NCBI GenBank assembly: GCA_030740155.1
Contig: JASLXV010000054.1
Span: 1 to 64,000 of the forward strand
Length of the DNA: 64,000 nucleotides
Reading direction: 5' to 3'
From: Dehalococcoidia bacterium
Lineage (GTDB): Bacteria > Chloroflexota > Dehalococcoidia > Lucifugimonadales > UBA3495
The translations under genes were made by a program, and so were the position numbers. Shown piece by piece: positions 1-23,761 of this stretch. Within the stretch, counting starts at the first letter, position 1, and the number at the start of each line of letters is the position of its first letter. The notes below the pieces were generated by a model that saw nothing but the letters and a program-made list of their open reading frames with translations, made no database searches and had not been told where the DNA came from.

Positions 1-149
1 TCCCGGCGGAAGCCTTCCAGCACGATACGGATCTTCTCTTCAGGAGGGTACTTGCGCCGAGTGGCACCCTTCACCGTGCGAACGAAGGAGCGGGTCTCCT
101 CGGTCCGAGCTTCTGCTGCATTGGCCTTAATGTTTTCTGACTGGGACAC
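1..149 (-). CDS. IS3-family transposase OrfA, N-terminal part (partial)
   Basis: Manual translation from GTG149: MSQSENIKANAAEARTEETRSFVRTVKGATRRKYPPEEKIRIVLEGFRR; RRKYxxEEKIRIVLEG is typical of IS3 OrfA HTH. Confidence 0.75.
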   Translation of the reverse strand, partial: MSQSENIKANAAEARTEETRSFVRTVKGATRRKYPPEEKIRIVLEGFRR

Positions 150-259
150 ATTTGCCCCTTTCTGGAAGTAATGTACCTTCATTCCAGGAGCTCACGCCAC
201 TTCCACTTTCTCGGGTTTTCTTACACCCCAATGTGTCCCATTATCGCTGACGGTCTACA
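1..259 (-). mobile_element. Left end of an IS3-family insertion sequence (continues beyond window start)
   Basis: Minus strand starts TGTAGACCGTCAGCGATAATGGGACA at 259 (TG terminus) exactly where the upstream protease ORF loses similarity; followed by an OrfA-type transposase start. Confidence 0.75.
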
Positions 260-746
260 CATCCTGCTCCAGAAACCGGATTCCCAAGAATGCTCCGGTC
301 TTCTCGTGTCGCCGCTCCTCGTACTGCAGCGGCTTGAACCCCACCGATACCCCGCGCTGGTAGCCGGACCGGTACAGCATCGCCACCTCCTGGGCGAAAC
401 GGGCGGGAGCGAATTCCATCCGGGCCAGCAGTAGGTGAGGCTCGGTCCAGGTCTTCACGGCGCGGCCGATGACCGGGCGGGCGTAGTCGTGAGCCCACAA
501 GAAAACCGGGTTGCGCCGGTACGACTCCAGCCTCCAACCTTCGGCCATGATCACGTCGCCGTGGCGGTCCACCTCGTCGGTGGAGATCACGAAGTTCATG
601 GGCTTCATTTGGCCGGTATCCGCCGGCAGGGGCTCCGTTTCAGTCCGCTTGCGCAAAATGGGCGCGTCGGCTATCCCCTGACGGAAAGCTTCCAGCGCTT
701 CCAGCAGGCGGTCCCGCTCCCAAGCAATCTCTTGCGGATTTCCCAA
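255..746 (-). pseudogene. HK97-type phage prohead protease, C-terminally truncated by IS insertion
   Basis: FVISTDEVDRHGDVI, YRRNPVFLWAHDY..PVIGR, GVSVGFKP motifs; ends FLEQDV* with the stop supplied by the IS end; the expected LLEISxVxVPAN strand is missing. Confidence 0.8.
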
Positions 747-789
747 TGTCGCACCTCCGGGGTTTAAACCGACGGCCGCCAGGGCAACG

Positions 790-823
790 AAAAAGGGACA
801 GACCCGTGTTGGGGTCTGTCCCT
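790..823 (-). terminator. Intrinsic-terminator-like hairpin in the 5' leader of the prohead protease gene
   Basis: 12-bp stem AGGGACAGACCC/GGGTCTGTCCCT (794-805, 812-823) followed by a T run on the minus strand. Confidence 0.65.
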
Positions 824-879
824 CTCGGAGGCTGGCCTCATGCCCAGGCCGCTACGGCTTTCTTTGCTTGACGATATTG

Positions 880-909
880 AGGTTAGAGAAGCGGTTCCCA
901 GCCTGTCAA
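880..909 (-). promoter_or_regulatory. sigma70-like promoter for prohead protease locus
   Basis: TTGACA(909-904)-N18-TAACCT(885-880) on minus strand. Confidence 0.5.
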
Positions 910-1175
910 CACGGCCGTGACACCGTTGCAAGTTGCTCTCAGCACCTGTCCGGCGCCTACTTTAGTGCCACCTATGTGCCCGGTTGTATATGAGGGCGCA
1001 TCCCGGATGCCCCTGATGCAACCCGAAGGGGGGTGGCAACGCACACCCCATTCCGAGTCACGGCGTCCCGTCGGGAATATCGTTGACCTCAGATTCTCGG
1101 TTGTGTTAGCCTATTAAGTACCAGGCATCATCGAAGCCTGATATTTGTTCAAACTACTAGGAGCGTGGCGATAGC

Positions 1176-1565
1176 ATGGAAGTTACGACTCTGGCGATAG
1201 AGAAGCTCAAAGAAGTCATGGTTGAACAAGGAGAGCAGGACGGCTCGCTTCGGGTGATCGCCATGCCCGCGGAAACCGGCGGGGTGCAGTACATGTTGGC
1301 CATGGAGAAAGAGAGCCAGCCTGACGACACCGTGTTCAACCTGGAAGGGCTGAACTTCCTGATGGACTCCGATAGCGCGCCGTTCCTGGAAGAGGCGACC
1401 ATCGACTACGTGGAGAACCTGGGAGGCCAGGTCGGGTTCGTAATCAACAATCCCATGTTTGCCAGCGCCGGGTGTGGCGGCGGCGGCTGCGGGTGCGGCG
1501 AGGGTGGCGGTGGTGGCTGCGGCTGCGGCGCGGGCGGCGGTGGTTGCGCCTGCGGCGGCCACTGA
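1176..1565 (+). CDS. HesB/IscA/ErpA-family Fe-S assembly accessory protein with Cys/Gly-rich tail
   Basis: VTTLAIEKLK, DSDSAPFLEEATIDYVE, GFVINNP; C-terminal CGC repeats. Confidence 0.85.
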   Translation: MEVTTLAIEKLKEVMVEQGEQDGSLRVIAMPAETGGVQYMLAMEKESQPDDTVFNLEGLNFLMDSDSAPFLEEATIDYVENLGGQVGFVINNPMFASAGCGGGGCGCGEGGGGGCGCGAGGGGCACGGH

Positions 1566-1594
1566 TCTCACCCGACTCAAAGCAAGAACCCTTG

Positions 1595-1630
1595 ACAGGG
1601 GCCTCACGGAAGTGGGGCTCCTGTTTTTTT
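1595..1630 (+). terminator. Rho-independent terminator
   Basis: ACAGGGGCCTCAC-GGAA-GTGGGGCTCCTGT followed by T run. Confidence 0.8.
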
Positions 1631-1794
1631 CTGCGTTGCGCCAAGAGGGGGCCGCTTCAGTAATAGGGCGTCTGCGCCGAGATACCCCCTCCCCTTGACG
1701 CCCTCAATATCGGGAAACATAATGCACCTTTGACGCCCTGCTCTCGCGCCCTGCTTTCCGAGAGCAAACCAGCGCCGTCATTGCGGAGGCTCTC

Positions 1795-3531
1795 ATGGCT
1801 CAGTCACCCCACGGTGTTAGCTTCGACTCCAATCGCCCGGTGGTAATGGGACGCAACGGAATGGTCTGCTCCGGCCACCCTCTGGCCTCCCAGGCGGGCA
1901 TCACCATGCTGCAACAGGGCGGGAACGCCGTGGATGCCGCCATCGCCACGGCCGCGGCCCTGACCGTCGTCGAACCCCTGATGTCCGGCCTGGGCGGCGA
2001 CGGATACATCATGGTCTACTGGAAGGAAACCGACCGCCTGGAAGTCTGCAACGCCACCGGCGCCGCCCCCTACGCCGCGACCCGGGAACGCTACGAGCCT
2101 CAAGGCATCCCGATGAAAGGTATCCTCTCTGTTTCGATGCCTGCCTTGCTGGATGGCTGGCTGGAAGCCCACGGGAAATATGGCACTTTGTCTTTGGCCA
2201 CGGTTCTGGCCCCGGCCATCGACCTGGCTGACGCCGGCTTCCCCGTGACCCACGTGCTGGCCAATGCCATCGCCGCCGACCCCTTGCTGTGCCAGTTCCC
2301 TACTTCCCAACGGGTCTTCACCCGCCAGGGGAAGCCCCTGGGTCCCGGTGAGATCCTCTACCAGAAAGACCTGGCCCGAACGTTCCAGGCGGTCATCGAG
2401 GGTGGCCGGGACGCGTTCTACAGTGGTGAGATAGCCCAGGCCATCGTCAAATTCAGCGAGGAGCAAGGAGGGTTGCTGTCCCTGAAAGACTTCGAAGACT
2501 GCCGCTCCAACTGGCAGGAGCCCATATCCACCACCTACCGGGGTTACACCGTCTACGAGGCACCGCCCAACTCCAGCGGCCACGTTTTGCTCCAGGAGCT
2601 AAACCTGGTGGAGAAGGCCGACCTCAAGGCCCTGGGTTGCAACACCGCCGATAGCATTCACTTGATGGTGCAGGCCAAAAAGCTGGCCTTCATCGACCGG
2701 GAAGCCTACGTGGCCGACCCCGAGTTCGTCGACGTTCCTACGGCGGGCCTCATCTCCAAAGAGTACGCCACGGTCCGGGCCAGGCTGATCGACTCGGCCC
2801 GGAACGCCACTGGAGTTCGCCCCGGAGACCCTTGGCGGCACCAGCGGCGGGGGCCCGGTGGCCAGGAAGCGGGGGCCAACGTTGGGGGTTTACCGGTGGA
2901 AGAGGACACGACCTGTTTCGTGGTGGCGGACCGCTGGGGCAACTCCGTCTGCCTGCTGCAGAGTTTGCAGAGCGCCTGGGGTTCCAGCCTGATCGCGGGG
3001 AACACCGGCGTATTGCTCAACAACCGGATGACTTACTGGCATCTGGACCCCGGCCACGTGGACTGCCTTCAACCGGGCAAGCGGGTGCGTCACACCATGA
3101 ACCCGGTGATGGTCTTCAAAGAGGGAGGCCCTTCATCCCAAAGGGGACCTGGCGCGGCCGAGACCCGGCAATTGGTGTTGGTGTGCGGAACGCCGGGCGC
3201 CGACACCCAGGTCCAGACCAACCTCCAGGTGATAACCCACGTGCTGGACTTCGGCATGACCGTCGCCGAGGCGGTTGAGGCGCCCCGCTGGCGCGACACC
3301 CAGAGCCCCACCGAGTCGAACCTGCCCCATGTCTGCGACGACCTGCTCCACTTGGAGGCCCGCTTCCCCGAACCGGTCCGGACCGGGCTGGAGCGGCGGG
3401 GTCACCGGCTAAACGTCATCGATCCGTGGGGCGCCTCGGGCAGCGAGATGATGATTCAGGTTAATCCGGAGACCGGAGTACTCCAGGGCGCTGCCGACCC
3501 CCGCCGGGACGGCTACGCCATCGGCTGGTAG
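1795..3531 (+). CDS. ggt: Gamma-glutamyltransferase family protein
   Basis: GGNAVDAAIA, MSGLGGD, nucleophile Thr in DTTCFVVAD, LNNRM, GTPGAD, GAADPRRDG. Confidence 0.93.
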   Translation: MAQSPHGVSFDSNRPVVMGRNGMVCSGHPLASQAGITMLQQGGNAVDAAIATAAALTVVEPLMSGLGGDGYIMVYWKETDRLEVCNATGAAPYAATRERYEPQGIPMKGILSVSMPALLDGWLEAHGKYGTLSLATVLAPAIDLADAGFPVTHVLANAIAADPLLCQFPTSQRVFTRQGKPLGPGEILYQKDLARTFQAVIEGGRDAFYSGEIAQAIVKFSEEQGGLLSLKDFEDCRSNWQEPISTTYRGYTVYEAPPNSSGHVLLQELNLVEKADLKALGCNTADSIHLMVQAKKLAFIDREAYVADPEFVDVPTAGLISKEYATVRARLIDSARNATGVRPGDPWRHQRRGPGGQEAGANVGGLPVEEDTTCFVVADRWGNSVCLLQSLQSAWGSSLIAGNTGVLLNNRMTYWHLDPGHVDCLQPGKRVRHTMNPVMVFKEGGPSSQRGPGAAETRQLVLVCGTPGADTQVQTNLQVITHVLDFGMTVAEAVEAPRWRDTQSPTESNLPHVCDDLLHLEARFPEPVRTGLERRGHRLNVIDPWGASGSEMMIQVNPETGVLQGAADPRRDGYAIGW

Positions 3532-3778
3532 GTGGGGCGGCGGCACGATGGCGCGCCGGGTTCCAGGGGTACCGGTCCGGAAGACTCCGGTGAGACGGCT
3601 CGGGCCGCCCTCACCTGTCCTTGACTAGACCAACGTCTTGCACTATTCTGCCTTTGCCCCCGGCCAAGGCCTATAGCTTGTGGGCGGAGCCGGGAAAGCT
3701 CCCGTTTGCCTAAAAACCTGTCGAGTGTCACCGGCCAGCCTGCAGACGGGCCGGCAATTGAATGTGAGGAGGCGTGCC

Positions 3779-4138
3779 ATGGCGTTCAAACTCAATCATC
3801 TCCACCTGAAAACCCCGGACCCGCGGCAGACGGCGCAGTGGTACGTGGACAATCTGGATGCCACCATAGTGTCGGACTCGGCGCCAAACGCCTACCGTCT
3901 TGACCTGCATGGGCTCCCCTTGAACGTTACCGGGTTCATCGATGGGCAGACCCACCAGCAGTTGTACGGCATGGAGCACATTGCCGTCGACACCGACGAC
4001 ATGGATGGAGTGATGGCAAAGCTGAAGACCGCCGGCGCCCGCCTCGTGGAAGAATTGAAAGGGAGCAGCGGCCGGAGGGTCTGCTTCTTCGAAGGCCCCC
4101 AGGGCGTCCTGCTCGAGGTCATAGAGGTACCGAAATAG
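3779..4138 (+). CDS. VOC/glyoxalase family protein
   Basis: ATG3779 after GAGGAGG; LNHLHL, EHIAV, FFEGPQGVLLEVIE. Confidence 0.85.
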   Translation: MAFKLNHLHLKTPDPRQTAQWYVDNLDATIVSDSAPNAYRLDLHGLPLNVTGFIDGQTHQQLYGMEHIAVDTDDMDGVMAKLKTAGARLVEELKGSSGRRVCFFEGPQGVLLEVIEVPK

Positions 4139-4192
4139 CCTTCCCAATCCCCGCCTCCCGATATCCAAACCCGACGCGCGACGGAGTATCCG

Positions 4193-4846
4193 ATGATTTA
4201 CGAGTTTCGATATTACACGGCAGTGCCAGGAAAGCTCCCGGCCATCAACGACCGCTTTGCCAACCATACCATCGGCATTTTCAAGAGTCACGGCATCGGG
4301 ATCATGGGGTTCTGGACCGATGAGATCGGCACCAGCAACCTGCTTACCTATGTCTTGACTTTCGATAGCATGGCCGACCGCGAAGAGAAGTGGAACGCCT
4401 TCCAGGCCGACCAGGGCTGGCAGCGCGTTCGGGCCGAGTCGGAGAAGGGAGGCACGCTGGTGGCCGTGGTCCGCAACGCTTTCCTGCGGCCCACCCCCTA
4501 CTCTCCCCAGCCCAGCCTCAAGTCCAACATCCAAGAGTTGCGGGTTTACGACACTATGCCCGGCAAGCTGCCCGCCCTCCACGACCGGTTCTCCAACCAC
4601 ACCATTGGACTGTTCGAAAAGCACGGCATCGAAAACATCGGCTACTGGACCGAGGAAGTGGGGATTAGCAGCCGCCTGGTGTACATGCTGGGCTATCCGA
4701 GCCTGGGTGACCGGGAGAAGAGTTGGGAGGCGTTCCAAGCAGACCCCGAGTGGCAGAGCGCACGGGCCGAGTCGGAAAAGAACGGCCCCCTGGTTCGAGT
4801 GAGCCGCCACTCAATCCTACGGCCAACCCCTTATTCGCCCAGGTAG
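4193..4846 (+). CDS. NIPSNAP family protein (two tandem domains)
   Basis: Two repeats of YExRxY..PGKLPA...RF.NHTIG.F..HGI...G.WT. Confidence 0.9.
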   Translation: MIYEFRYYTAVPGKLPAINDRFANHTIGIFKSHGIGIMGFWTDEIGTSNLLTYVLTFDSMADREEKWNAFQADQGWQRVRAESEKGGTLVAVVRNAFLRPTPYSPQPSLKSNIQELRVYDTMPGKLPALHDRFSNHTIGLFEKHGIENIGYWTEEVGISSRLVYMLGYPSLGDREKSWEAFQADPEWQSARAESEKNGPLVRVSRHSILRPTPYSPR

Positions 4847-4947
4847 AACCGTGGGCCCGGACTGGCCTGGGGCGGTGCGGTCGCGGGAGATTCAACACCA
4901 GGGTACTGCGCCCCGGTGCTAACCGGATTGAACCGCGCCTCGAGTAA

Positions 4948-6261
4948 ATGGAGGATCGTGGAGCGACAAAGGTGACCAATTTGGCCCAAACGGGCCAGCG
5001 GATCAGGGGCCGGTTTCTGGTTTCGTTGGAGTACTCTGAGTACCGAAAGCTATGGCTGGCCACGCTGTCCTCCCAATCCGCGGTGTGGGCGCTGATCGTA
5101 GCGAGGGCCGCCCTGGTCCTGGAGTTGACCGGATCGCCGGCCTGGACGGGATACGTTACATTCGCCGCCATGATCCCCTCGATCCTTGTTTCCCCCCTGG
5201 CTGGATACCTGTCCGACCGTTTTGACCGGCGCACCGTCCTGGCATGCGCCTACGGGATCAACCTGGCCCACAGCGTGATTTTGGCGGTCCTGGTGGCTTC
5301 CGGCGCCGTCGAAGCGTGGCACGTGCTGCTGCTGGCGATCCTCAATGGCTCGGCCAGGGCCGCGCAGATGCCATCGGCCCAGGCTCTGCTGGCCAACCTG
5401 GTGCCCAAAGCGGGCATCCTCAACGCCGTTTCTCTCTATCAGGCCACCCAGCAGGGTTCCCGCTTCGTGGGACCCTTCTTGATCCTGGTGGTGCTGTGGA
5501 TCACGGGGCAGGAGGATTGGGTGTTCTTCCTCTGCGCCGCCCTTTACTGCAGCGGGCTCTTTCTGATATTGCGGATTCGCACCCGCTCAACGGGTGTAGT
5601 TGAGAAAGGAGCGGGCCCGAGGGTGATCTTGCGCAACGTGACGGCGGGTTTGCAGTTCATGTACCACCACGCGCTAATCGTTTCCATAGTTTTACTGGTC
5701 GTGGCCCACTGTGCCATGACCATGTCCTTTGAATCCCTGTTCCCGGTGCTTTCGAGAGACAAGCTGGGGATGGAAGACGCCAGCATCATGGGAGGCACCA
5801 GCTACTTGATGGTGGGCTACGGCGCCACGGCGCTGGTCACCTCATTCGCCCTGGCCGGGGTCCAAAGCGAACGGATCAAAGGCAGAACGTACCTGGTCAT
5901 GGCGGTCCTGAGCGGCCTCACTCCCATAGGTCTGGCCTTAGCCCCCAACATGCCGCTGGCGGTCCTCGCGACGGCAGGAATGGGTCTGTCCCAGGGCGGA
6001 TTCATGACCCTGAGCCACGCCATGGTACAGACCATTGCCCCCGATGCGATCCGGGGCCGTTTGCTGGGAGTGTACGGCTGGCACATTCAAGGCTTCATGG
6101 CCACCTTCAACCTAGTCAACGGCACCCTGGCCGGCTTCACGGGGCTGACCGCCGCCATTGTACTGGGGGCCGGCGGGGTGGGTTTCCTGATAATGTTAAC
6201 CTTAAGCATGGGGAGGCTCCCTTTGCGCCAGTTGTACGCAAGGGGAGTACCGGCAACCTAG
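4948..6261 (+). CDS. MFS transporter
   Basis: ~12 hydrophobic segments; motif A GYLSDRFDRR; PDAIRGR. Confidence 0.88.
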   Translation: MEDRGATKVTNLAQTGQRIRGRFLVSLEYSEYRKLWLATLSSQSAVWALIVARAALVLELTGSPAWTGYVTFAAMIPSILVSPLAGYLSDRFDRRTVLACAYGINLAHSVILAVLVASGAVEAWHVLLLAILNGSARAAQMPSAQALLANLVPKAGILNAVSLYQATQQGSRFVGPFLILVVLWITGQEDWVFFLCAALYCSGLFLILRIRTRSTGVVEKGAGPRVILRNVTAGLQFMYHHALIVSIVLLVVAHCAMTMSFESLFPVLSRDKLGMEDASIMGGTSYLMVGYGATALVTSFALAGVQSERIKGRTYLVMAVLSGLTPIGLALAPNMPLAVLATAGMGLSQGGFMTLSHAMVQTIAPDAIRGRLLGVYGWHIQGFMATFNLVNGTLAGFTGLTAAIVLGAGGVGFLIMLTLSMGRLPLRQLYARGVPAT

Positions 6262-6325
6262 GGGCCGTTACACTCGGTGAATCGCGGCCGGGGATCTTTG
6301 AGCCGCGAAAGAGGAGCAACGCACC

Positions 6326-7489
6326 ATGGATGTGGTCCAGTTGAGGAAGCAAATCCCCGTTTGCCAAGCGATGACCTACATGAACACGGGCTGGTCGGGG
6401 CCTTCACCGTTGCCGGTGGTCGACGCCATCAAAGAGCGCCTGAACCTCGAGATGACCCGGGGTCCCACCAGCCCGGATGTCAACTCGGCCGGGAAGGAGA
6501 TCCAAGCCCAGGCCAAAGAAGCGGTCGCCCGGCTCTTGAACGCCACGCCGGAAGAGATCTGCCTGACCAAGAACACCACCGAGGGCCTCAACTTCGTCAT
6601 AAACGGGCTCCCCTGGCGGCAGGGAGACGAGATCATCACATGCAGCCTGGAACACAACTCGGTGCTGGTGCCCAGCTACTACCAGCAGCACCGGCATGGG
6701 GCCGTGGTCAAGGTACTTGACTTCGCCCCCAACGAGAGCCAGGATTCGATTCTCGACAAGATAGAGGCAGCGGTCACCGAGCGCACCAAGCTGGTCTTCC
6801 TCAGCCATGTGGAGTACTCGTGCGGCCTGCGGATGCCGGTCAAAGAGATAGGCCGGCTGATTCGGAACCGGGGCGGGCTGATGCTCTTGGACGGCGCCCA
6901 AACGGCGGGGCACATCGATCTCGACATGCGGGATTTGGGCTGCGATTTCTACTCTATCCCTGGGCAGAAGTGGCTGCTGGGCCCGGAAGGAACCGGGGCG
7001 CTATACATCCGGCGGGAGCTGATTGACCAGGTTGCGCCGGTCAACGTCGCCGGGAGAGCGGCGGTGCGGACCGGAAATCCTTATGACTTTCAGCCCAGCC
7101 TATCCACCATGGAGAAGTTCCAGATAACCTCCACCAGCGCGCCGTTGCAGGCCGGCCTGCTGAGGACCCTCGAGTTTATCCAGGACATAGGAGTCGGGGA
7201 GATCGAGAAGCGAAACCTCGACCTGGCCGGGAGGATGAAACTGGCGTTACGGGAGACGCCGGGGGTGAGGGTTCTTTCACCGCTCGACCGCCAGGGTTCC
7301 TCGGGTCTGGTCACTTTCAACATCGGCGGCGTTAGTCCGGATGAGGTCGTGTCCCGCCTCTGGGAGAAGCATCGCATCCTGCTTCGCACGGTGTCCTTCC
7401 CCTCCTGCATCCGGGCCTCTTTACACTTCTTCAACACCGGAGAGGAGGTGGACCAGGTGGTGGAGGCATTGCGAGGGATCGCGCGCTAG
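6326..7489 (+). CDS. PLP-dependent class V aminotransferase (EgtE/CefD-like lyase)
   Basis: YMNTGWSGP, NTTEGL, LEHNS, DGAQ, PGQKWLLGPEGTG, IRASLHFFNT; lacks the SufS RxGHHC catalytic Cys motif. Confidence 0.85.
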   Translation: MDVVQLRKQIPVCQAMTYMNTGWSGPSPLPVVDAIKERLNLEMTRGPTSPDVNSAGKEIQAQAKEAVARLLNATPEEICLTKNTTEGLNFVINGLPWRQGDEIITCSLEHNSVLVPSYYQQHRHGAVVKVLDFAPNESQDSILDKIEAAVTERTKLVFLSHVEYSCGLRMPVKEIGRLIRNRGGLMLLDGAQTAGHIDLDMRDLGCDFYSIPGQKWLLGPEGTGALYIRRELIDQVAPVNVAGRAAVRTGNPYDFQPSLSTMEKFQITSTSAPLQAGLLRTLEFIQDIGVGEIEKRNLDLAGRMKLALRETPGVRVLSPLDRQGSSGLVTFNIGGVSPDEVVSRLWEKHRILLRTVSFPSCIRASLHFFNTGEEVDQVVEALRGIAR

Positions 7490-7546
7490 GCCAACACAAC
7501 CCGCTCAAGCCCGGCTTCGGGGCAAGACAGGGCGGATCGCCCATCT

Positions 7547-7908
7547 CTACAGAGGTGCTTCTCCTCTAGCCCGGTGTTCCGCCATATAGGCGGCCGCCTG
7601 AGACCTCCGAGATACCTCCAGCTTGCCCAGGATATTGCTGACGTAGTTCTTCACCGTCTTGTCGCTGAGGTTGACCTCCTGGGCAATCTCCCGGTTGGTG
7701 CACCCTTCGGTGATCAACTTCAGGATGCGCTGCTCCTGAGCGGTTAGCTGAGCCCATCCCTCGTCGACCCATCGGCCTCGCCGGAGTCGCTCCAGCACGC
7801 AGGTAGTTACCGCCGGGTCCAATAGCGATTGCCCCGAGCCCACCCGGCGGATGGCTTCCAGTATCTCCGGGGCGCGGGCCTCTTTTAGGAGATACCCGGA
7901 CGCGCCGC
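7547..7908 (-). pseudogene. C-terminal half of a NarL/DevR-type response regulator (LuxR HTH); receiver N-terminus deleted
   Basis: GASGYLLKEARAPEILEAIRRVGSGQSLLDP...LTAQEQRILKLITEGCTNREIAQEVNLSDKTVKNYVSNILGKL; no receiver Asp region upstream. Confidence 0.8.
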
Positions 7909-8813
7909 CCCTGACGGCGCAGAATCACGCTCCGGCCCGAGCCGAAGCGGTCCACGTCCACCGCCAGCACCACTTCTTCCTCTTGGGAGCCGGCGCCTGG
8001 GTCCGCGGCATCCAGGTCCGGACCGTGGGCCGCGGCTTCTATGTCGGAAAGCCGGATCAGTGTGTCCTCGGCCTGGTCGGGGAACTCACCCAGTACCCGG
8101 GCGCGGAAGATGGGGTTGTCCTCTCCCCAGGTCTCCCGGTGCTCCCCTACCCACTTGGCCGACGTGAGCCCGGGAATCACCATCTTGCCTGCCTGAACGT
8201 TGGGGCTGTCCAGCGCGGAGATGGTAATGGTCTTATACAGGTGCCGTTCCTGGTAGAAAGCCCGGCGGAAGGCCCCTGAAACGGTGGTGGGGTTTCCAAT
8301 GAGAAGGAGCAGGGGATCAGCCGCGGTCGTTACCGCCTCGATGGCTTCGTGGATCTCGTCGCTGACACCCTCGGCCTCATCCACCACGATCAGCATGTTC
8401 GGGCTGTGGAACCCTTGAAACTGGTCGGCGGTATCGGCGCAAAGGCCCAGGGCGAAACGGTCCTCGGCCAGCTCCCAGCGAGTGTCCAGCATCTTGCCGC
8501 CCAGCGTGTCTTTGGCCTTGCGGTGCAGCCGGCGTATCTGTCGCCACAGGATGTAGCGCACCTGACGAAAAGTCGGGGCGGTGCTGAGCACGATGGCTGG
8601 GTCGTGGCAGTGGCGGAACCAGAGGACGGCCACCGCGGCGCAGAAGCCCTTACCGAGCCCGTTGCCCGACTTGACCGCCACCCTCCGGTGCTCCGGCAAA
8701 GCCGCCAGCACTTCCTCTTGTTTGCTCCACAGCTCCACCTCGAGAACCTCGCGGGCGAATTCCAGCGGCGTGTACTTCACTTCGGCAGGACCGCCTGCCT
8801 TACGTTCAGCCAC
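7900..8813 (-). pseudogene. Phage large terminase subunit, nuclease domain truncated (ORF runs out of frame to 7566)
   Basis: LWSKQEE, Walker A KSGNGLGK, Walker B LIVVDEAEG, LIGNPT, RVLGEFP, start of nuclease LAVDVDRFG then loss of similarity at ~7900. Confidence 0.8.
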
Positions 8814-8819
8814 TCCCCG

Positions 8820-9023
8820 TTACTCCCGTATTTGGTGGCCGGAGCGGACCGCCACAGTCCGGGAAGGACCGGATGCCGGACGGGTCTCAGCCGTGGCCGT
8901 GGCGTGAGCAGCGGAGGGGCTGAACAGATAACCGCACTCCTGGCAACGGAAGACATCGTGGTCTGCCGGCCACTTCTTGTCCAGTTGAATCAACCGCGGA
9001 GAAAGGCAACGTCGACAGCGCAA
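8820..9023 (-). CDS. Small Zn-ribbon protein upstream of terminase
   Basis: CxxC...CxxC (CRRC, CQEC); TTG start after AGGAGGTG; 6 nt from terminase start. Confidence 0.7.
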   Translation of the reverse strand: MRCRRCLSPRLIQLDKKWPADHDVFRCQECGYLFSPSAAHATATAETRPASGPSRTVAVRSGHQIRE

Positions 9024-9048
9024 TCCCGATCACCTCCTGGAAATGTGT

Positions 9049-9121
9049 AGGGACGGCCCAACATCTTGTCGGGTCCGTCCCTGCTCATCCCACGCTATGC
9101 TTCGGCAATCGAGAGTGTCAA
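9049..9121 (-). promoter_or_regulatory. sigma70-like promoter plus leader hairpin homologous to 794-823
   Basis: TTGACA(9121-9116)-N18-TAGCGT(9097-9092), then AGGGACGGACCC-N11-GGGCCGTCCCT (9082-9049). Confidence 0.6.
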
Positions 9122-9282
9122 CCGGGGCCGCGTCACCGGGGCGGCCCTGTATCAGAGGCCGGCGCTACCGGCGAAACAGTGGTTCACCGGCGTGCCCAAG
9201 AAACCGGTCCGAATCACCGGCCCAGAAGCCGGCGCCCCCACACGGGCGCCGGCTTCTGGGCAAGGATTGGGTCCCTTCAAGT

Positions 9283-9513
9283 CTAGTCCGGGCCGGGTAC
9301 CCGGGGGCCGGGGTGCCGCCGCCGTTGGACCAGGTAGAACACCACCACGGAGACGGGCATGAGCAGGATCAGCACCCCCAGGCCGGCCACGATGGTCCAC
9401 GGCCCCACTACCAGCACGCTGTCCAGCAGGTCTTTGATCCGCTCGAACAGGTCCGGGTCCACCGCCTCGCCGTGATGCCTGGCCAGTGACCCGAGAATTG
9501 ACCAGGGCATCAC
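9283..9513 (-). CDS. Small single-pass membrane protein
   Basis: Hydrophobic helix WTIVAGLGVLILLMPVSVVVFYLV followed by RRR; directly downstream of MFS gene. Confidence 0.55.
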   Translation of the reverse strand: MMPWSILGSLARHHGEAVDPDLFERIKDLLDSVLVVGPWTIVAGLGVLILLMPVSVVVFYLVQRRRHPGPRVPGPD

Positions 9514-9516
9514 GGA

Positions 9517-10815
9517 TCAGTCCCCCGCGGCCGCGGCTGGCCGCGCCTGGTAGCGGATCGAATACCTCTCCTCTTTAATGGTGAAAGCGGCGAGGGCCGC
9601 TAAGAAGAGTAGCGAGCCAACAATGGCGAAGGGCAAGGTATAGGAGCCGGTAGCGTCTCTCAGAGCCCCGGCCAGCAACACCGCGCTGGCGCCTCCTACC
9701 TGGTGGAAGACGAAGGTTATCCCGGAAATGGTCCCCAGGGCCCGCACACCGTAGACGTCAGCGGTCAAGGACATTGTCAGCGGACCGGTCGCGATCCACG
9801 AGACCCCGGCCATGGCGGCGAACGCCCACAACCCGAATGTGGAGGAAGTGGCCAGCAAGACGACGTAGGCGCAGCCACGGATCAGGTACACTGCGGCCAG
9901 GACATTCTTGCGCCGAAACCTGTCCCCGAGTATTCCCGCTCCGATGCTTCCGGCGACGTTCAGGAGCATCATGAACGAGAATATCCAAGCCGCCATGATC
10001 GGGGAGGCGCCCACCTCTTCCTCCGCGTAAGCCACGAAGTGAATGGCGATCACCATCGTGGTGGCGCCGCAGGCGAAGAACGCGGCGGACATCTGCCAGA
10101 AGGGTGGGGACTGAAACGGCTGCTTCCACTGGTCTGTTTCCAATGGCCCGGATGGCTGGGGGACAACTCCACCAGCGCCGCCTGGTGGTTGGCCGGGCTT
10201 GCCACCTAACCGCTGCCCTAGTTTGTTGGGGCTGTCACGAAGAAACAGTAAGGCAAATGGCACCGAGAGCACCAAAATGATCAGGCCCAAGACGACCCAG
10301 GTTACCCGCCAGCTGGTGGCTTCGATCAAGTAGGCAGCGAACGGGACCAGGATTAACCCGCCGACGGACACTCCAGCTGAATTGATCCCCACCACCGTGG
10401 CCCGTTTACTCCGAAACCACTTGGACAGCAAAGCCGCCGTATTGGTCAATCCGCTACCGCTCAGGCCCGTGGAAACCACGACACCAAACATGAAGGCAAG
10501 GAACAGGATGTGGAAAGTGAAGGCAAGGGATACCGTGGCCAGACCGACGACTATCAGGCTGGCGATAATGATCCGGGCACCCATCCGGTCGAACAGGTAC
10601 CCCATGAACGGCTGGGTTAGCCCGTTGACCAGGAGGCCCAATGAAACGGCCAATGAGATGGTCGTCCTGTCCCACCCCAAGTCGTCGCTCATGGGTTTGA
10701 CGAATACGCCGAATGTCTGACGGGCGCCCACCGTGACCAGGGCTATAAAGAGACACGCCGCGACCACGTACCAGCCCTGGTACAGGCCGCGAGTCTGGCT
10801 TTCGTTTGTTGTCAT
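9517..10815 (-). CDS. MFS transporter
   Basis: YQGWYVVA, GYLFDRMGAR, GILGDRFRRK; start moved to ATG10815. Confidence 0.88.
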   Translation of the reverse strand: MTTNESQTRGLYQGWYVVAACLFIALVTVGARQTFGVFVKPMSDDLGWDRTTISLAVSLGLLVNGLTQPFMGYLFDRMGARIIIASLIVVGLATVSLAFTFHILFLAFMFGVVVSTGLSGSGLTNTAALLSKWFRSKRATVVGINSAGVSVGGLILVPFAAYLIEATSWRVTWVVLGLIILVLSVPFALLFLRDSPNKLGQRLGGKPGQPPGGAGGVVPQPSGPLETDQWKQPFQSPPFWQMSAAFFACGATTMVIAIHFVAYAEEEVGASPIMAAWIFSFMMLLNVAGSIGAGILGDRFRRKNVLAAVYLIRGCAYVVLLATSSTFGLWAFAAMAGVSWIATGPLTMSLTADVYGVRALGTISGITFVFHQVGGASAVLLAGALRDATGSYTLPFAIVGSLLFLAALAAFTIKEERYSIRYQARPAAAAGD

Positions 10816-11065
10816 TCCTTGTCGGCGGCCTTCGGGCCGGCCCATCCTGCGAGACAGCCCGGTGATCCCCTCACGTGCCGGTACCCTCCTCACCGCGCCA
10901 TCCCGCAGTGCCCTCTTTTCAAAACCGGAGCATTCATCTTAACACCCGGCCTCAGGACCGCCTAGCCCGCTCCCGGGGGTCTTGGTCGCACCTGCCGCAA
11001 GAGGGACTGTATATTCTCTTGCTGAAACGAAAGACCAAAGCTGCCCGGTCTCCGCCGGGCCGTGC

Positions 11066-12430
11066 TTACTCCCGGCCTGGCGGAGCATCTTGGGCGTCTC
11101 CTCCAGTACGAACGGCGGTGAGCCGCGCCGGCAGCTTGGGACGCCGCATGGAAGCATAGGCCCCCGCGGAAAAGGCGGCGACCACCGAGGCGACCACCAA
11201 GGGAACACCGTAGCTGTCGTGGTGGTCAAACCACCAGCCCGAGGCAAAAGGCATCACCAGCCAGGCCCAACTGTAGCTCATGCCGATGAACCCCCGTAGA
11301 GTGGCGTAGTGCCTTCGTCCAAAGTAATCGCCTATGGTCCCCCAGTTTATCGGTGTGATGCCTTCCGAGGTCCCGCCGATGACCGCCGCGGCCACGATGA
11401 TCCAAGTCCGGTCGGAAGACAGCAGAAGGACGAAAGCGATAACGTACAGGAGCATCCCTCCGCCCAAGACCGCCGGTTTCGGAGCCCGGTCGGCGAAGTA
11501 TCCAAACAAAAGCTTGGAGGGGACGTTCATGCCGGTCCACAAAGTGTAGATCAAGCCCGCGGAAGCGGGATCCACCCCCTTCCATTGGAAAATCGCGATG
11601 AGGTGGACCTCCACCGCCGCCCTCGACGCCTGCCGCAACATGGTGCCAACCAGCAGCGACCAGTAGCCCCAGGTGCGCAGGGCCTCCTTCACGGTGTAGT
11701 CAACCTGGTCGTAGTCGCTGGTCCCTCTTATCGCCGAGCCCATTCGCCGCTGCTCCGCGGCCTTACTGGCGGCGGCAACCTCCTCCGGCGTCACCCCGTC
11801 GGGCAGCAGGCCGATGCTTTCCGGGGATTCCTTGAGGAATCGAGAGAGAGGCAGGACAATCAGCAGGTAGGCGCACGCCGCCATTACCGCGGCGGTCCGC
11901 CAGCTGTATGCGGCAATCACCAGGACCATGACGGGTATCATGGCGGTTGAGCCAAGATTTCCCGTGGCTTCGCGGATCGCCATGGCTCTCACTCGAAAAC
12001 GGCTGAACCATTTGTTGACCATGGCCATCATGGCATCTTCAAACGCCATCGTAGCCCCAAAGGAAATGAACAACATGTAGGCCAGGGCGAAGATCCAGAC
12101 ATTGGTGGCAGTAGCGAAGATGATGAACCCGGCGCCGGCCAGCACCGTGCCGATGATCAACATCCTCTTGGTCCCGAACCGGTCCACCATGTAACCGACG
12201 GCAGGTCCTCCCAGGGCTCCCTCCGAACGAGCCAAGGAGAAAATCAGGGACGCGGTGGCCCGGCTCAGCCCCAGGCTGGTTTCCACCGGTATCAGGAAGA
12301 CGGTGGCGCCCCGAGAGTAGAAGCTGTTGTTCACCGCGCCGATGAAGCTGACCAGGGCGAGCATTCGCCACCCGTAATACATCTTCTTCGGTCGGTGGAG
12401 ATCAGATACGGTACTACCCATACGTTCCAT
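11066..12430 (-). CDS. MFS transporter
   Basis: YYGWRML, GYMVDRFGTK, GDYFGRRHYATLRG. Confidence 0.88.
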   Translation of the reverse strand: MERMGSTVSDLHRPKKMYYGWRMLALVSFIGAVNNSFYSRGATVFLIPVETSLGLSRATASLIFSLARSEGALGGPAVGYMVDRFGTKRMLIIGTVLAGAGFIIFATATNVWIFALAYMLFISFGATMAFEDAMMAMVNKWFSRFRVRAMAIREATGNLGSTAMIPVMVLVIAAYSWRTAAVMAACAYLLIVLPLSRFLKESPESIGLLPDGVTPEEVAAASKAAEQRRMGSAIRGTSDYDQVDYTVKEALRTWGYWSLLVGTMLRQASRAAVEVHLIAIFQWKGVDPASAGLIYTLWTGMNVPSKLLFGYFADRAPKPAVLGGGMLLYVIAFVLLLSSDRTWIIVAAAVIGGTSEGITPINWGTIGDYFGRRHYATLRGFIGMSYSWAWLVMPFASGWWFDHHDSYGVPLVVASVVAAFSAGAYASMRRPKLPARLTAVRTGGDAQDAPPGRE

Positions 12431-14098: not shown

Positions 14099-15948
<1,850 letters not shown>

Positions 15949-16701: not shown

Positions 16702-18036
16702 ATGCGAGTAGTCCATTACGTCAACCAGTTCTTTGGAGGTATCGGCGGCGAGGAGAAAGCCAATATTCCCGTGGAGGTGCGGGAGGGCCCGGTGGGTCCG
16801 GGCCGGCTTCTCCAGCAACTCCTGGGCGACCAGGGTTCCGTGGTCGCCACTATCATCTGCGGCGATAACCACATCAACGAGGAACCGGAGGCCCTCAAGG
16901 CGGTAGTCCAGGCCCTGCGTGAGGCCCGGCCTGACGTCGTCATAGCGGGTCCGGCCTTCGACGCCGGCCGCTACGGCCTGGCTTGCGGAGCCGTGTGCCA
17001 AGCCGCCGAGGAGATAGGAATACCTGCCGTGACCGCCATGGAGCCCGAAAATCCGGGCGTGATCAGCTACCGGCGGTCCGTTGTAATGGTCCCCACCGAC
17101 GCCGGCCCGGCCGAAATGCAGTCAATCCTTTCCCAGATGCAGCGCATCGCCCTGAAGCTCGGCGCCGGCGAAGAACTGGGGCCGGCCGAGGAGGAAGGTT
17201 ACCTGCCTCGGGGAATCCGCAAGCTTGCCACGCGGCAAGGCCCCGGATACAAGCGGGCCCTCGCCATGCTGGTCAAGAAGCTCAACGGTCAGCCCTTCGT
17301 ATCGGAAGTCCCCTTCCAGTCGCCCGAGAACGTCTCGCCGGCGGCGGCTCTGCCCGACCTGAGCCGCGCCACCATCGCGCTGGTATCCACCGGCGGGCTG
17401 ATCCCTAAGGGTAACCCCGACCGCATGGTCGCCGGCAACGCCGACCGGTACCACGCTTACTCGATCGAGGGCCTGGCGAGCCTGACCAGCGACCGTTGGG
17501 AGGCGTTCCACAGCGGGTACTACAATCAGATTGCCAGTGATAACCCCAACTACATCCTCCCATTGAGCCACTTGCGCCACCTTGAGTCGGAAGGGATAAT
17601 TGGCCAGGTGTGCTCGCACCTGTTCACCATGGCGGGCGTGAGCACCCCGGTGGCCAACTCCAAGGGCCTCGGAGTCAAGTTGGCCCAGGAACTCAAAGAG
17701 AAATCGGTGGATGCCTGTATTCTGGTCGCCACTTGAGGGACCTGCAATCGTTGCGGCGCAACGATAACGAAAGAGATCGAACGGGTGGGCATACCGGTAG
17801 CCATGATCACCGCCCTGTACACCCTGGCCCTCACCACCGGCGCCAACCGGGTGGTCAAGGGCTCCCGCATCGAGCACGTCTGCGGCGACCCGGATCTGGG
17901 CCCCGAGAAGGACTTCGCTTTCGGCCTCCGGATAGTCCAAACGGCGCTGGAGGCCCTCGAAACCACGGTCACCGGCCCCACTCTCTTCGAGCCGGGCGAG
18001 ACCAGTTCCCCCAAGGAGGCGGTCCATGCGTCTTGA
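16702..18036 (+). CDS. grdB: Glycine/sarcosine/betaine reductase selenoprotein B (Sec at TGA 17734-17736)
   Basis: VVHYVNQFFGGIGGEEKA, AGPAFDAGRYG; reading through TGA gives LVAT-U-GTCNRCGATITKEIERVGIPV (UxxCxxC), in frame with ORF 17785-18036; 444 aa. Confidence 0.92.
17747..17765 (+). promoter_or_regulatory. Candidate SECIS hairpin of grdB
   Basis: Perfect stem ATCGTTGC-GGC-GCAACGAT starting 11 nt after UGA. Confidence 0.65.
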
Positions 18037-19315
18037 AATGGGCACCTTTCCGGTAAATGAGATAGTCTTCGGGTCGCAAACCCGGTGGACCGATGGACTG
18101 CTGGAGGTCTGCCGGGAGGACCTCATCCAAGCCGTGGCCGATGATCCCCGGATAAAAAAGATCGAGTTGGAGCTGACCAATCCTGGCGACTCAACCCGCA
18201 TCTGGCCGGTGCGAGATGTCGTCGAGCCTCGCATCAAGGTCCGGGGACAGGGCATGGTCTACCCCGGAATCTGCGGCCGGCCCATTGCCACCGTCGGCGA
18301 GGGGCGCACCCATCGGCTGTCCGGCATGGGGGTGGTCGAAGTATCCGAAACCCTTTGGCACGAGTCGGGGGGAGACCATATCTTCGTTTACCAGGATATG
18401 TCCGGCCCCTGGGCCGAGCTTATCCCCCAGAGCAGCCTGATCAGCTTGTGCGTCGTTGTCGAGCCGGACCCGGCACTCGGGGTCGATGCCAGAAACGACG
18501 CCGTCCACAAGGCGGTCCTGACGGTTTCCGACCTTCTGGCCGCGGCCACCAGCGAGTTGGAGCCGCCGGAGATAGAAGTTTTTGAACTCAAGGAGCCAGA
18601 CCCATCCCTCCAGAACGTAGTCTACATCCAGTGCCTCCACTCACCACAAGCCATGTCGGGTTCCCCGAGCACTTTCTGCACATCAACCTATGGCCTCACC
18701 CAACTCACCCCGCCCTGGCTGTTTCACCCGAACGAAATTATGGACGGGGCGATCACCGGCCCTTATCGCACCGCCTTCGCCAACTCTTGGACGGTGGCCA
18801 ACAACCCGTTGCTGCTGGACCTGTACCGCCGCCAGGGCATCGACTTCAACTTCATCGGAGTCATCGCCACCCGGACCGAGTGGACCACCCAGCAGGAAAA
18901 GGAAATGACCGCCAACCAGACCGCCAAGCTGGCCAAGATGATTGGCGCCCAGGGCGCACTGGTTACCTGGGACGCGGGCGGCAACGAATTCATCGAGGTG
19001 ATCCGCACGGTGCAGGCCTGTGAACACGTTGGGATCAAGACCGTGTTCCTTACCAGCGAAGATGATCCCACGGGCGCCGCGCCGACGATGCTGGAGCCGG
19101 TCCCCGAGGCCGACGCCATCGTGACCACCGGGTTCTTCAAGTCTGAGTTGCTGGGCATGAGCCCCCTGCCACCGGTGGAGCGGGTCATCGGCAACCCTCA
19201 ATTTATCAGCGGGCAGCTCCGGGACCACTACGTCCCCACTGCGGGTCCGCTACCCGCTCCCCAGCGCTACGACGACCACTACGGCTTCGGGGAGATTAGC
19301 AGCCAAGGGTACTGA
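18026..19315 (+). CDS. Glycine/sarcosine/betaine reductase component B proprotein subunit (GrdE/GrdG/GrdI family)
   Basis: MRLEMGTF, PGDSTRIWPVRDVVEPRIK, GEGRTHRL, HPNEIMDGA, GIKTV; overlaps grdB stop. Confidence 0.88.
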   Translation: MRLEMGTFPVNEIVFGSQTRWTDGLLEVCREDLIQAVADDPRIKKIELELTNPGDSTRIWPVRDVVEPRIKVRGQGMVYPGICGRPIATVGEGRTHRLSGMGVVEVSETLWHESGGDHIFVYQDMSGPWAELIPQSSLISLCVVVEPDPALGVDARNDAVHKAVLTVSDLLAAATSELEPPEIEVFELKEPDPSLQNVVYIQCLHSPQAMSGSPSTFCTSTYGLTQLTPPWLFHPNEIMDGAITGPYRTAFANSWTVANNPLLLDLYRRQGIDFNFIGVIATRTEWTTQQEKEMTANQTAKLAKMIGAQGALVTWDAGGNEFIEVIRTVQACEHVGIKTVFLTSEDDPTGAAPTMLEPVPEADAIVTTGFFKSELLGMSPLPPVERVIGNPQFISGQLRDHYVPTAGPLPAPQRYDDHYGFGEISSQGY

Positions 19316-23299: not shown

Positions 23300-23761
23300 A
23301 TGGAACTGAAGAATATGAAAGTCATCGCCCTCGGCGAACGGGATGGGGTCCCGGGCAATGCCATCGCCAAGTGCGCCGTGAGCGCCGGTGCGGAGGTGGT
23401 GCTGGAGGCGACCCACTGCTTCGTTTGAACCTCAGCGGGCGCCCTTGACCTGGACGGTCAAGAAGAGATCAAGAAGCTGGTGGACCGGTTGGGGAGTCAG
23501 GACGTAATGGTGCTCCTGGGCACTCCCAACGCGGAGAGCAGCCGCCTCTACGGCCTCACCGTTACCGAAGGCGACCCGTCATGGGCCGGGCCCCTGGCCG
23601 GCGTCAAGCTGGACCTGCCCGTTTTCCACATCGCCGAGCCGGAGATCAAGGCTCAAATCGAGCCCGGCATCTATCAAGACGAAGTCGGCCTGGCCGAGAT
23701 GGCACTGGAGACCGACGAGATTTTCGACGCGCTCCAGAAGGTCCGCAACGGGAGCGGGTAG
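23300..23761 (+). CDS. grdA: Glycine reductase selenoprotein A (Sec at TGA 23426-23428)
   Basis: Manual: [19 protein letters not shown]...[17 protein letters not shown]...[12 protein letters not shown]; CxxU motif; 153 aa, in frame with ORF 23480-23761. Confidence 0.93.
23444..23462 (+). promoter_or_regulatory. Candidate SECIS hairpin of grdA
   Basis: Perfect stem CTTGACC-TGGAC-GGTCAAG 15 nt after UGA. Confidence 0.65.

Follow-up and report, generated by a model that had tools for sequence, protein, structure and literature searches.

Truncated prohead-protease and terminase loci behind one promoter-hairpin leader: probable relics of a vertically inherited, two-operon head and packaging module in Dehalococcoidia

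Why two phage-type loci lying only 7 kb apart among ordinary bacterial genes should be preceded by one and the same promoter-hairpin leader is the question raised by the DNA analysed here, positions 1 to 64,000 of contig JASLXV010000054.1 (assembly GCA_030740155.1) of a Dehalococcoidia bacterium. This whole stretch is called the window, and the genome under study G000. One locus carries a prohead-protease gene and the other a zinc (Zn)-ribbon gene followed by a large terminase gene (terL), and the operons to which they belong are named P and Z, respectively. A first reading of the bare sequence, hereafter the original prediction, had taken both for parts of a co-regulated, phage-derived particle system resembling a gene transfer agent (GTA). 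In this study, we provide evidence that the window loci are the 5' ends of the two operons of an ancient, vertically inherited, phage-derived head and packaging module of a large Dehalococcoidia clade, now a relic in G000, with one putative switch acting on both leaders, and we give this reading a probability of about 0.7. The predicted particle system is partly borne out, since two operons of one head and packaging set with a shared leader exist in the lineage, but the set is dead in G000.

Forty relatives were searched, which together with G000 make 41 genomes, 24 of them in the same family. Genes resembling terL were found in 24 of the 41 genomes and in 19 of the 24 family members, and protease-like genes in 24 and 18, respectively, both mostly in single copy; 17 family genomes have both genes, three have one and four have neither. 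On shared contigs of the family the two genes are never adjacent, and the distances between P and Z are about 19-33 kb (G010, G015, G007, G013, G019 and G020), 98-142 kb, 430 kb and 1.6 Mb. Outside the family, distances of 13 kb and 4.4 kb were found in two genomes of other families (G037, same order, and G028, respectively). In G010 the two operons are divergently transcribed.

The gene content of the module was taken from the annotation of six genomes (six P loci). Operon Z consists of genes for a Zn-ribbon protein of 57-86 amino acids (aa), TerL of about 427-460 aa and a portal protein of about 430-445 aa, and operon P begins with the protease (199-290 aa) followed by the major capsid protein (444-465 aa). 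Behind the capsid gene stands one of two alternative sets, either an adaptor-like protein of about 275 aa, joined in some genomes (G013, G018) by a tail terminator and a major tail protein of 142 aa, or a 90-aa and a 257-290-aa protein. The relatives' proteins match phrog_2 (TerL), phrog_2662/PF04860 (portal), phrog_80/PF04586 (protease) and phrog_10/PF05065 (capsid), and their TerL has both the ATPase and the nuclease part. A collection in which each species is represented by a single genome contained 247 stretches coding for TerL relatives, and 80 of the 247 were kept for locus counts. All 80 come from metagenome-assembled genomes (MAGs) of Dehalococcoidia or Chloroflexota, one of them labelled SAR202. 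A Zn-ribbon orthologue lies directly upstream of terL in 79 of these loci, with its N-terminal 36 aa and four Cys conserved and a TTG start in 31 of the 32 examined; terL is one unbroken match in 78 and a frame of at least 427 aa in 76, and the portal gene is present in 77 (the sequence of the other three stops before it) and uninterrupted in 72.

The same host genes flank the operons in different genera and in the window: HesB, a thiamine pyrophosphate enzyme and GGT on one side of P and enoyl-CoA hydratase, TlyA, CinA and penicillin amidase on the other, a major facilitator superfamily (MFS) transporter and a small open reading frame (ORF) before Z and an S9 peptidase after it. Among 40 ORFs tested in 34 kb of G010 there was no integrase or replication family, nor was there any among the tested ORFs at the loci of five further genomes. 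In this respect the relatives resemble GTA hosts, with resident structural and packaging genes and, among the ORFs tested, no replication, integration or excision genes to go with them. The possibility that relatives lack the genes, or hold them only inside integrase-bearing prophages, on which the original prediction had staked itself, did not materialise, as the relatives carry split, integrase-free operons. Three smaller observations concern these loci. A GIY-YIG endonuclease gene lies between protease and capsid in G004 (L032:9033-9443) and an HNH endonuclease gene among the host genes between P and Z in G010 (L023:11420-11755), both of which may be homing-endonuclease or phage-derived leftovers; and in G007 (G007:C7, about 137.5-140.5 kb; L052/L092) an insert of about 3 kb separates the Z leader and the first Zn-ribbon codons from the rest of the operon.

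Of the 25 closest pairs, two failed on an N and the other 23 gave a terL dN/dS of 0.05-0.23; the capsid is 69-84% identical between genera. Identity of terL is 88% in the genus, 63-80% in the family and 40-65% in other families, where AtpD gives 98%, 86-91% and 73-83%, respectively; across 23 genomes the two identities are correlated (Spearman 0.72), with related genomes as non-independent points. Viruses are distant. Among 50,697 phage records the best match is 38% for terL and, in T5-like phages, 27% for the capsid, and IMG/VR holds nothing closer to terL than 47%, whereas host genera are 60-88% identical to one another. Synteny, dN/dS, an identity that tracks the host and the distance to viruses argue for long vertical descent of a domesticated element and not for repeated infection; judged in this way, the relatives appear to have kept the module by vertical inheritance and under purifying selection over long periods, as is expected of GTAs. 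For the lineage, the reading as a dispersed, vertically inherited and co-regulated set is upheld by conserved flanks, mostly single copies, the integrase-free loci, the low dN/dS and the leader common to both operons.

All the elements of the shared leader described in the original prediction (TTGACA-N18-TAnnnT, hairpin, GGAGGTG and TTG) were read at both window loci (Table 1). The hairpins fold at -27.7 kcal/mol (z -6.6 versus shuffles) in P and -28.9 kcal/mol (z -5.9) in Z, and the P hairpin, which runs into TTTT, looks like an intrinsic terminator. The distance from the -10 box to the hairpin is unequal, about 56 nucleotides (nt) in P and 9 nt in Z, and alignment of the two leaders showed no similarity apart from the hexamers and the hairpin. 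The Z spacer of the window contains the conserved ..CGATTGCC.., and the P spacer TTGACAnnCnGGGAAnCnCTTCTCTAACCT and the upstream TGWCA recur in the relatives' P leaders. Most relatives, including those of other genera, have the same promoter and hairpin before both operons, in a conserved order of TGWCA(C) about 15 nt upstream of TTGACA, an 18-nt spacer, TAnnnT, a hairpin of consensus (A)GGGACnGACCC-loop-GGGnCnGTCCC and a T-rich tail, mostly with 5-9 T in the 12 nt after the hairpin. The spacers are conserved across genera as nnCnGGATTnC in Z and nnCnGGGAAnCnCTTCTC in P, the TTG start of the first P gene is kept in most of the relatives' P leaders (judged by eye), and 60 of the 80 Z loci have TTGAC-N16-19-TAnnnT together with the conserved spacer and a TGACR upstream.

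A covariance model of the hairpin (R1) was built from 20 hairpins of 13 genomes, both window sites included. In G000 it gave three matches, site 1 on both strands and site 2, and nothing elsewhere; the scores in the window were 48.2 bits (E 1.9e-9) for P and 40.8 bits (E 2.3e-7) for Z. Matches above 35 bits in most family genomes, including genomes outside the training set, are almost only the P and Z leaders, with stray matches in G003 and at a G008 contig end. On the sense strand upstream of terL, R1 matched in 48 of the 80 loci and a regular expression found a hairpin in 51, either of them in 58. A further match of 43.7 bits (G035:1005742) has a promoter, and the ORFs downstream are without Pfam match. 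Weaker matches, at or below about 35 bits, were rejected as members of a regulon: 12 sites in relatives were inspected, and the nine weaker matches proved to be ordinary gene-end terminators that have different stems and lack a promoter. The bare 12-mer AGGGACRGACCC occurs four times in the 3.6-Mb genome, about two being expected by arithmetic from its 62.6% GC, and two of the four are both arms of the P hairpin; the copy at C69:9511 was rejected as a further hairpin site and attributed to chance, since it lies inside a coding region and has no partner arm.

The hairpin appears to act as RNA. Stem pair 12:33 covaries (AU 8, GC 8, CG 3), the other stem positions are nearly fixed, and 90.8% of stem cells pair, compared with 31-58% when partner columns are slid. 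The G:U pairs fit the sense strand only and the loop varies from 3 to about 90 nt, which argues for an RNA hairpin and not a dimer-bound DNA palindrome, so that the reading of the inverted repeat as a DNA operator is rated low. The stem sequence is kept at both loci across genera and the loops and flanks have diverged; this points to an RNA hairpin in which sequence, and not only pairing, is under constraint. Rfam, searched over positions 1-12000 at E<=1, gave no match at either hairpin, and its single sub-threshold match in that range was Bcj11 at 9159-9269, which scored 27.7 bits where the gathering score is 49. Six metatranscriptome runs cover small shares of the window (0.05-0.14); from two of them came a few short contigs of low depth, among them 822-972 and 1004-1154, which as contigs carry no strand, transcript start or transcript end and are uninformative on expression, as are the stretches that lack cover.

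In the window itself both genes named in the original prediction proved to be truncated, a fact that it had not noticed. The gene at 255-746 was correctly recognised as a head protease, but only its N-terminal part is present: the ORF matches phrog_617 (4.3e-14) and phrog_80 (1.7e-8) over the N-terminal part only and is 52-73% identical to the relatives' proteins, which are 199-290 aa at full length. No Pfam family matched the fragment, and a search of the whole G000 genome with PF04586 (caudovirus prohead serine protease, S78) gave no match, the window fragment included; the full-length G010 orthologue, 73% identical to the fragment, passes PF04586 with 34.8 bits at a cut-off of 21. On PHROG and orthology evidence, the Pfam cut-off not being reached, the fragment is filed as a truncated protease orthologue. 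Window bases 1-259 match about 35 other places in the genome at 78-100% identity, mostly at contig ends; nearly all the matches break off between 256 and 267, the majority of them at 259. Since the repeat ends at about 259, an insertion element cuts the protease at 259/260 (codon about 162) and provides its stop. The N-terminus of the element's ORF recurs on 24 contigs, C54 among them, and the depth of the repeat in two marine runs is 40-60 times that of flanking DNA. The repeat also breaks the G000 assembly at many contig ends. Neither the window fragment nor a degenerate internal copy (C93) has a Pfam match; the TG terminus and the ORF N-terminus look IS3-like, an impression that does not establish the family.

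The Zn-ribbon and large terminase pair placed at 7900-9023 by the original prediction is likewise real in both genes, with a terminase that is cut short. The Zn-ribbon protein of the window matched no Pfam or PHROG family. The ORF at 7566-8813 matches phrog_5902 (1.5e-33) and phrog_2 (3.1e-20) over aa 13-297 only; the ATPase motifs Walker A and B are kept (KSGNGLGKG, VVDEAEGV), and the alignment with six full-length orthologues ends at about aa 300, at ...DVDRFGSGRSVILRR (...SVILRR), where the nuclease domain starts. The nuclease domain (about 145 aa) and the downstream portal gene are missing, so that a full two-domain terminase is not encoded, and the open frame continues to 7566 through unrelated sequence. 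In another frame, the DNA from about 7898 onwards encodes a match to PF00196 (GerE) at 7547-7843 (4.5e-18), and the in-frame residues upstream of the GerE domain we take to be the end of a receiver domain. The sister genome G001 is 85% identical to the window as far as 7900 and then continues into the remaining terL and portal, which dates the junction to a recent event within this lineage. Positions 6758-9249 are also covered by one contig of a separate public marine run, which differs from the window at two places, so the junction is not an error of MAG assembly. Compared with G010 (L023, L024), the block 9517-32897, running from the Z locus through the MFS transporter, an FAD-binding oxidoreductase, PrpD, QueE-QueC-QueD-QueF and L-PSP to a Lon N-domain gene, is inverted, which accounts for P and Z lying only 7 kb apart in the window; one inversion breakpoint seems to lie within terL.

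Capsid, portal, adaptor and the remainder of the protease were found nowhere in the 93.7%-complete G000 assembly, either by family searches or by tblastn with the relatives' proteins; PF05065, searched against the whole genome, was also negative. The tblastn result is the one relied upon because the PF04586 and PF05065 models perform weakly in this lineage, where even intact orthologues score 31-35 bits. The genes of the far-side P flank (TlyA, CinA and penicillin amidase) lie on contig C105, and the 7.5 kb beyond TlyA on that contig had no match to any P-cluster query. With the protease cut, the nuclease domain lost and portal and capsid not found, the module is evidently unable to work in G000, and the genome holds no functional gene set of the kind that a GTA has. 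In G001 (L159, G001:C118, 6648-8220) operon Z survives from its leader through the Zn-ribbon gene and terL to a complete portal, its terL having a frameshift near codon 175-186 and a TGG-to-TGA change. Unless these are sequencing errors of the MAG, this would be a second, independent inactivation in the same genus. No protease-like gene was found in G001, and loss of the system seems to be under way in both members of this genus. Between the window and G001, the Zn-ribbon gene has a dN/dS of 0.23 and terL, over codons 1-186, one of 0.145; the stumps were constrained for most of their history. As the original prediction had stated, the window has no integrase, replication or lysis gene among the ORFs tested with Pfam (54 of them beyond 12 kb), and ordinary genes lie between the loci, the other ORFs being metabolic, housekeeping or without hit; there is no tRNA or tmRNA in the window and hence no clue to an attachment site.

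If the leaders are read functionally, each operon would start from a sigma-70-type promoter (TTGACA, 18 nt, TAnnnT), and one factor, encoded by the host or by the element, would bind the TGWCA and spacer sites of both promoters. Such a factor would turn both promoters on together and let RNA polymerase pass the hairpin, which with its U-rich tail directly behind the promoter has the layout of a putative promoter-proximal terminator, so that expression of the head and packaging genes would be confined to a burst. The factor may load at a site between -35 and -10, as the antiterminators Q, AlpA or GafZ do, and the Zn-ribbon protein could be a stand-in for a small terminase or a regulator. In G000, decay would have proceeded by an insertion element cutting the protease, with the rest of P gone, and by a rearrangement or deletion near 7900 that removed the terminase nuclease domain and the portal, leaving two leaders, the Zn-ribbon gene and two gene stumps.

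One review describes GTAs as resembling remnant phages, tending to be encoded at multiple loci possibly hundreds of kilobases apart and hard to recognise owing to their prophage-remnant look and their spread over several loci (PMC11841831). Like the GTAs of Rhodobacter (RcGTA) and Caulobacter (CcGTA) and BaGTA, the module has chromosomal phage-derived head and packaging genes that are vertically inherited under purifying selection, lie at more than one locus, possibly far apart, with shared regulatory elements, and are without integrase or replication genes. In contrast to these GTAs, it occurs in Chloroflexota and appears to be of independent origin (terL at most 38-47% and a T5-like capsid 22-27% identical to the viruses searched), its main structural cluster is itself split into two operons, its core has no complete tail and lysis genes, and it is known from genes alone and broken in the window. 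Compared with a head module of HK97/T5 type, it has large terminase, portal, S78-type protease and HK97-fold capsid by PHROG and Pfam, with Walker A and B kept, but its genes are not contiguous, it has no tail module, and a 57-86-aa Zn-ribbon protein of no known family occupies the small-terminase position. The leaders recall those of lambda Q at PR'/tR', of AlpA in Pseudomonas aeruginosa and of GafZ in CcGTA, which control late, structural or GTA genes and have a terminator-like hairpin close behind the promoter; a second source places the Q, AlpA and GafZ binding elements between -35 and -10, where the leaders described here also have conserved sequence, and reports terminator bypass in late-gene and GTA clusters (PMC11150451). 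The leaders of the module differ in that their terminator has a conserved stem sequence, for which those systems have no need, in that the Z-leader hairpin starts only about 9-12 nt after the -10 box, and in that no antiterminator protein has been identified for the module. No report of a GTA or of such an element in Chloroflexota, Dehalococcoidia or SAR202 was found in the literature searched; one paper with both 'SAR202' and 'gene transfer agent' mentions each separately.

Several findings weigh against the module reading or against parts of it, and they are best considered together with the other explanations. It could be argued that the genes are ordinary decaying prophage remnants without host function, left by repeated infection of one phage type at preferred sites, the leader being a phage late promoter with its terminator. 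The genes are clearly of phage origin, both are broken in the window, the G001 terL carries a frameshift and a stop, the portal is split in 5 of the 77 loci that have it and the terL frame is short in 4 of the 80, and several terL copies in G028 (five matching pieces in four places) indicate that related elements can multiply. The split portals and the several family genomes without the genes mean that loss of the module is frequent, and within the family the correlation between terL and AtpD identity is weak (0.41, n=18, p 0.09). Remnants of repeated infection would, however, hardly be expected mostly in single copy between the same host flanks across genera, with no integrase among the tested ORFs, with the same division into head and packaging operons in each genus, with a terL dN/dS of 0.05-0.23 and identities that follow host relatedness, and with capsids so much closer between genera than to any phage record and terL no closer than 47% to IMG/VR; we consider this explanation highly improbable. 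Quite unlikely, in our view, is that the module is real but makes a head-only system and not a GTA, either a satellite-like element that borrows phage tails or a device by which the host packages DNA, or disposes of it, in infection or stress. Capsid-forming phage-inducible chromosomal islands borrow tails from infecting phages. Only head and packaging genes are conserved here, tail genes are missing or incomplete and vary from genus to genus, as does gene content beyond the capsid generally, and no lysis genes were seen near either locus: the six annotated P loci have no tape measure, baseplate set or lysis gene, other genome regions not having been searched for tail or lysis genes. Unlike mobile satellites, however, the module has a fixed position and vertical inheritance, with no integrase, replication or helper-sensing genes seen, and its tail or lysis genes may lie elsewhere without the leader.

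The most serious of the alternatives, which we nevertheless hold to be unlikely, accepts the module but regards the hairpin as generic to the bacterial order, a terminator or a stem-loop stabilising 5' ends that goes with strong promoters and says little on co-regulation. It draws on G031, which belongs to a different family of the same order and gave no match to our terL and protease queries; R1 has 19 matches in this genome. In the 11 cases inspected there (L051, L160-L169) the hairpin follows a -10-like box, often accompanied by a TTGAC -35, at a distance of 7-11 nt and precedes the next longer ORF by 200-450 nt, and the nameable downstream ORFs are housekeeping (aldo/keto reductase, PanB, MetRS, Asd, signal peptidase); several copies share GTACCG...CGGTAC palindromes further downstream, and the hairpin of G031 looks like a dispersed promoter-leader or small-RNA element. 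In G031 at least the hairpin is generic, and it may be a general host device. A hairpin common to unrelated genes, which the original prediction had named as fatal to it, is thus absent from G000 with its two sites and present in one genome, G031. It also counts in favour of a generic hairpin that the Z hairpin lies within a few nt of the expected transcript start, as 5' stabilisers do, and that a subclade of about 16 species (L104, L110, L112, L114, L119, L121-L124, L126, L129, L133, L134, L140, L142, L146) keeps the module without the hairpin, behind a variant Z promoter in which three TGACAC-type motifs lie around a TTGCNN -35 and a TACGNT -10 with a conserved A-rich initial region. In all, about 22 of the 80 Z loci have no hairpin by either method, which makes it dispensable. 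Moreover, the alignment behind R1 (A2) was hand-picked from 20 sequences of 13 genomes, a simple consensus scan for promoters and terminators listed neither promoter and neither hairpin, the window Z hairpin has no good U-run (CTACACATTT being a poor T-run), and no antiterminator or regulator gene was identified. On the other side, matches above 35 bits in the window's family number about two per genome and are almost only P and Z, the stem sequence itself, beyond its pairing, is kept at both loci across genera, and the adjoining promoters share conserved spacer and TGWCA motifs.

Taken with this evidence, the reading as two operons of one inherited head and packaging module with a common switch allows a wider proposal, which we put forward tentatively and as a possibility only. 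A host-controlled, two-operon capsid and packaging machine of independent phage origin, switched jointly through a sequence-specific terminator hairpin and TGWCA motifs, may be kept by many Dehalococcoidia, in at least 247 genomes at species level and with marine lineages of SAR202 type among them. It would be a new GTA-like or head-only system of Chloroflexota with an antitermination-type switch of its own, and the window would represent a lineage losing the module. The inherited genes and their common control region hint at an undescribed GTA-like system in this group, whose intact members may produce particles. GTAs are known from few lineages; if hundreds of Dehalococcoidia species have a conserved split module, one more phylum would join them, with a bearing on gene flow in Dehalococcoidia. 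The shared leader offers a concrete handle, its hairpin and promoter motifs being searchable, mutable and usable as bait for a regulator. The window itself is modest, two dead gene stumps still with their control regions, a case of ordinary decay.

Table 1. Features of the P and Z loci in the window; leader coordinates were all read directly on the minus strand.
Feature	Position	Strand	Details and basis
P promoter region	880..922	-	TGTCAC 922-917; -35 TTGACA 909-904; 18-nt spacer; -10 TAACCT 885-880
P-leader hairpin	794..823	-	AGGGACAGACCC (823-812), loop CAACAC (6 nt), GGGTCTGTCCCT (805-794); perfect 12-bp stem
P operon 5' untranslated region	747..793	-	GGAGGTG 758-752; T-run 793-790; TTG start 746-744
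Prohead (head maturation) protease, codons 1 to about 162 only	260..746 (ORF 255-746)	-	PHROG matches, orthology
End of multi-copy insertion-element-like repeat	1..259	-	Contig begins inside repeat; supplies TAG 257-255 closing the protease frame
Z promoter region	9092..9135	-	TGACG 9135-9131; -35 TTGACA 9121-9116; 18-nt spacer; -10 TAGCGT 9097-9092
Z-leader hairpin	9049..9082	-	AGGGACGGACCC (9082-9071), 11-nt loop, GGGCCGTCCCT (9059-9049); one bulged A
Z ribosome-binding site and start	GGAGGTG 9037-9031; TTG 9023-9021	-	Direct reading
Zn-ribbon protein (CxxC...CxxC), 67 aa	8820..9023	-	Translation; first Z gene; TTG start
Large terminase, ATPase domain only (about aa 1-305)	7899..8813	-	PHROG, alignment with orthologues
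LuxR/NarL-type response regulator, C-terminal fragment without start	7547..7898	-	Out-of-frame join to terminase stump

Two further observations were made elsewhere in the window. Genes of a glycine/sarcosine/betaine reductase (GrdB-like, component B and GrdA) lie at 16702-19315 and 23480-23761, and the GrdA ORF matches model positions 60-147 only, as if the upstream frame were interrupted; presumably an in-frame TGA is read here as selenocysteine, as is known for this family. A glycosyl hydrolase family 15 gene at 14736-15948 falls into two neighbouring ORFs, one matching model positions 28-120 and the other 180-426, which may reflect a frameshift or a pseudogene.

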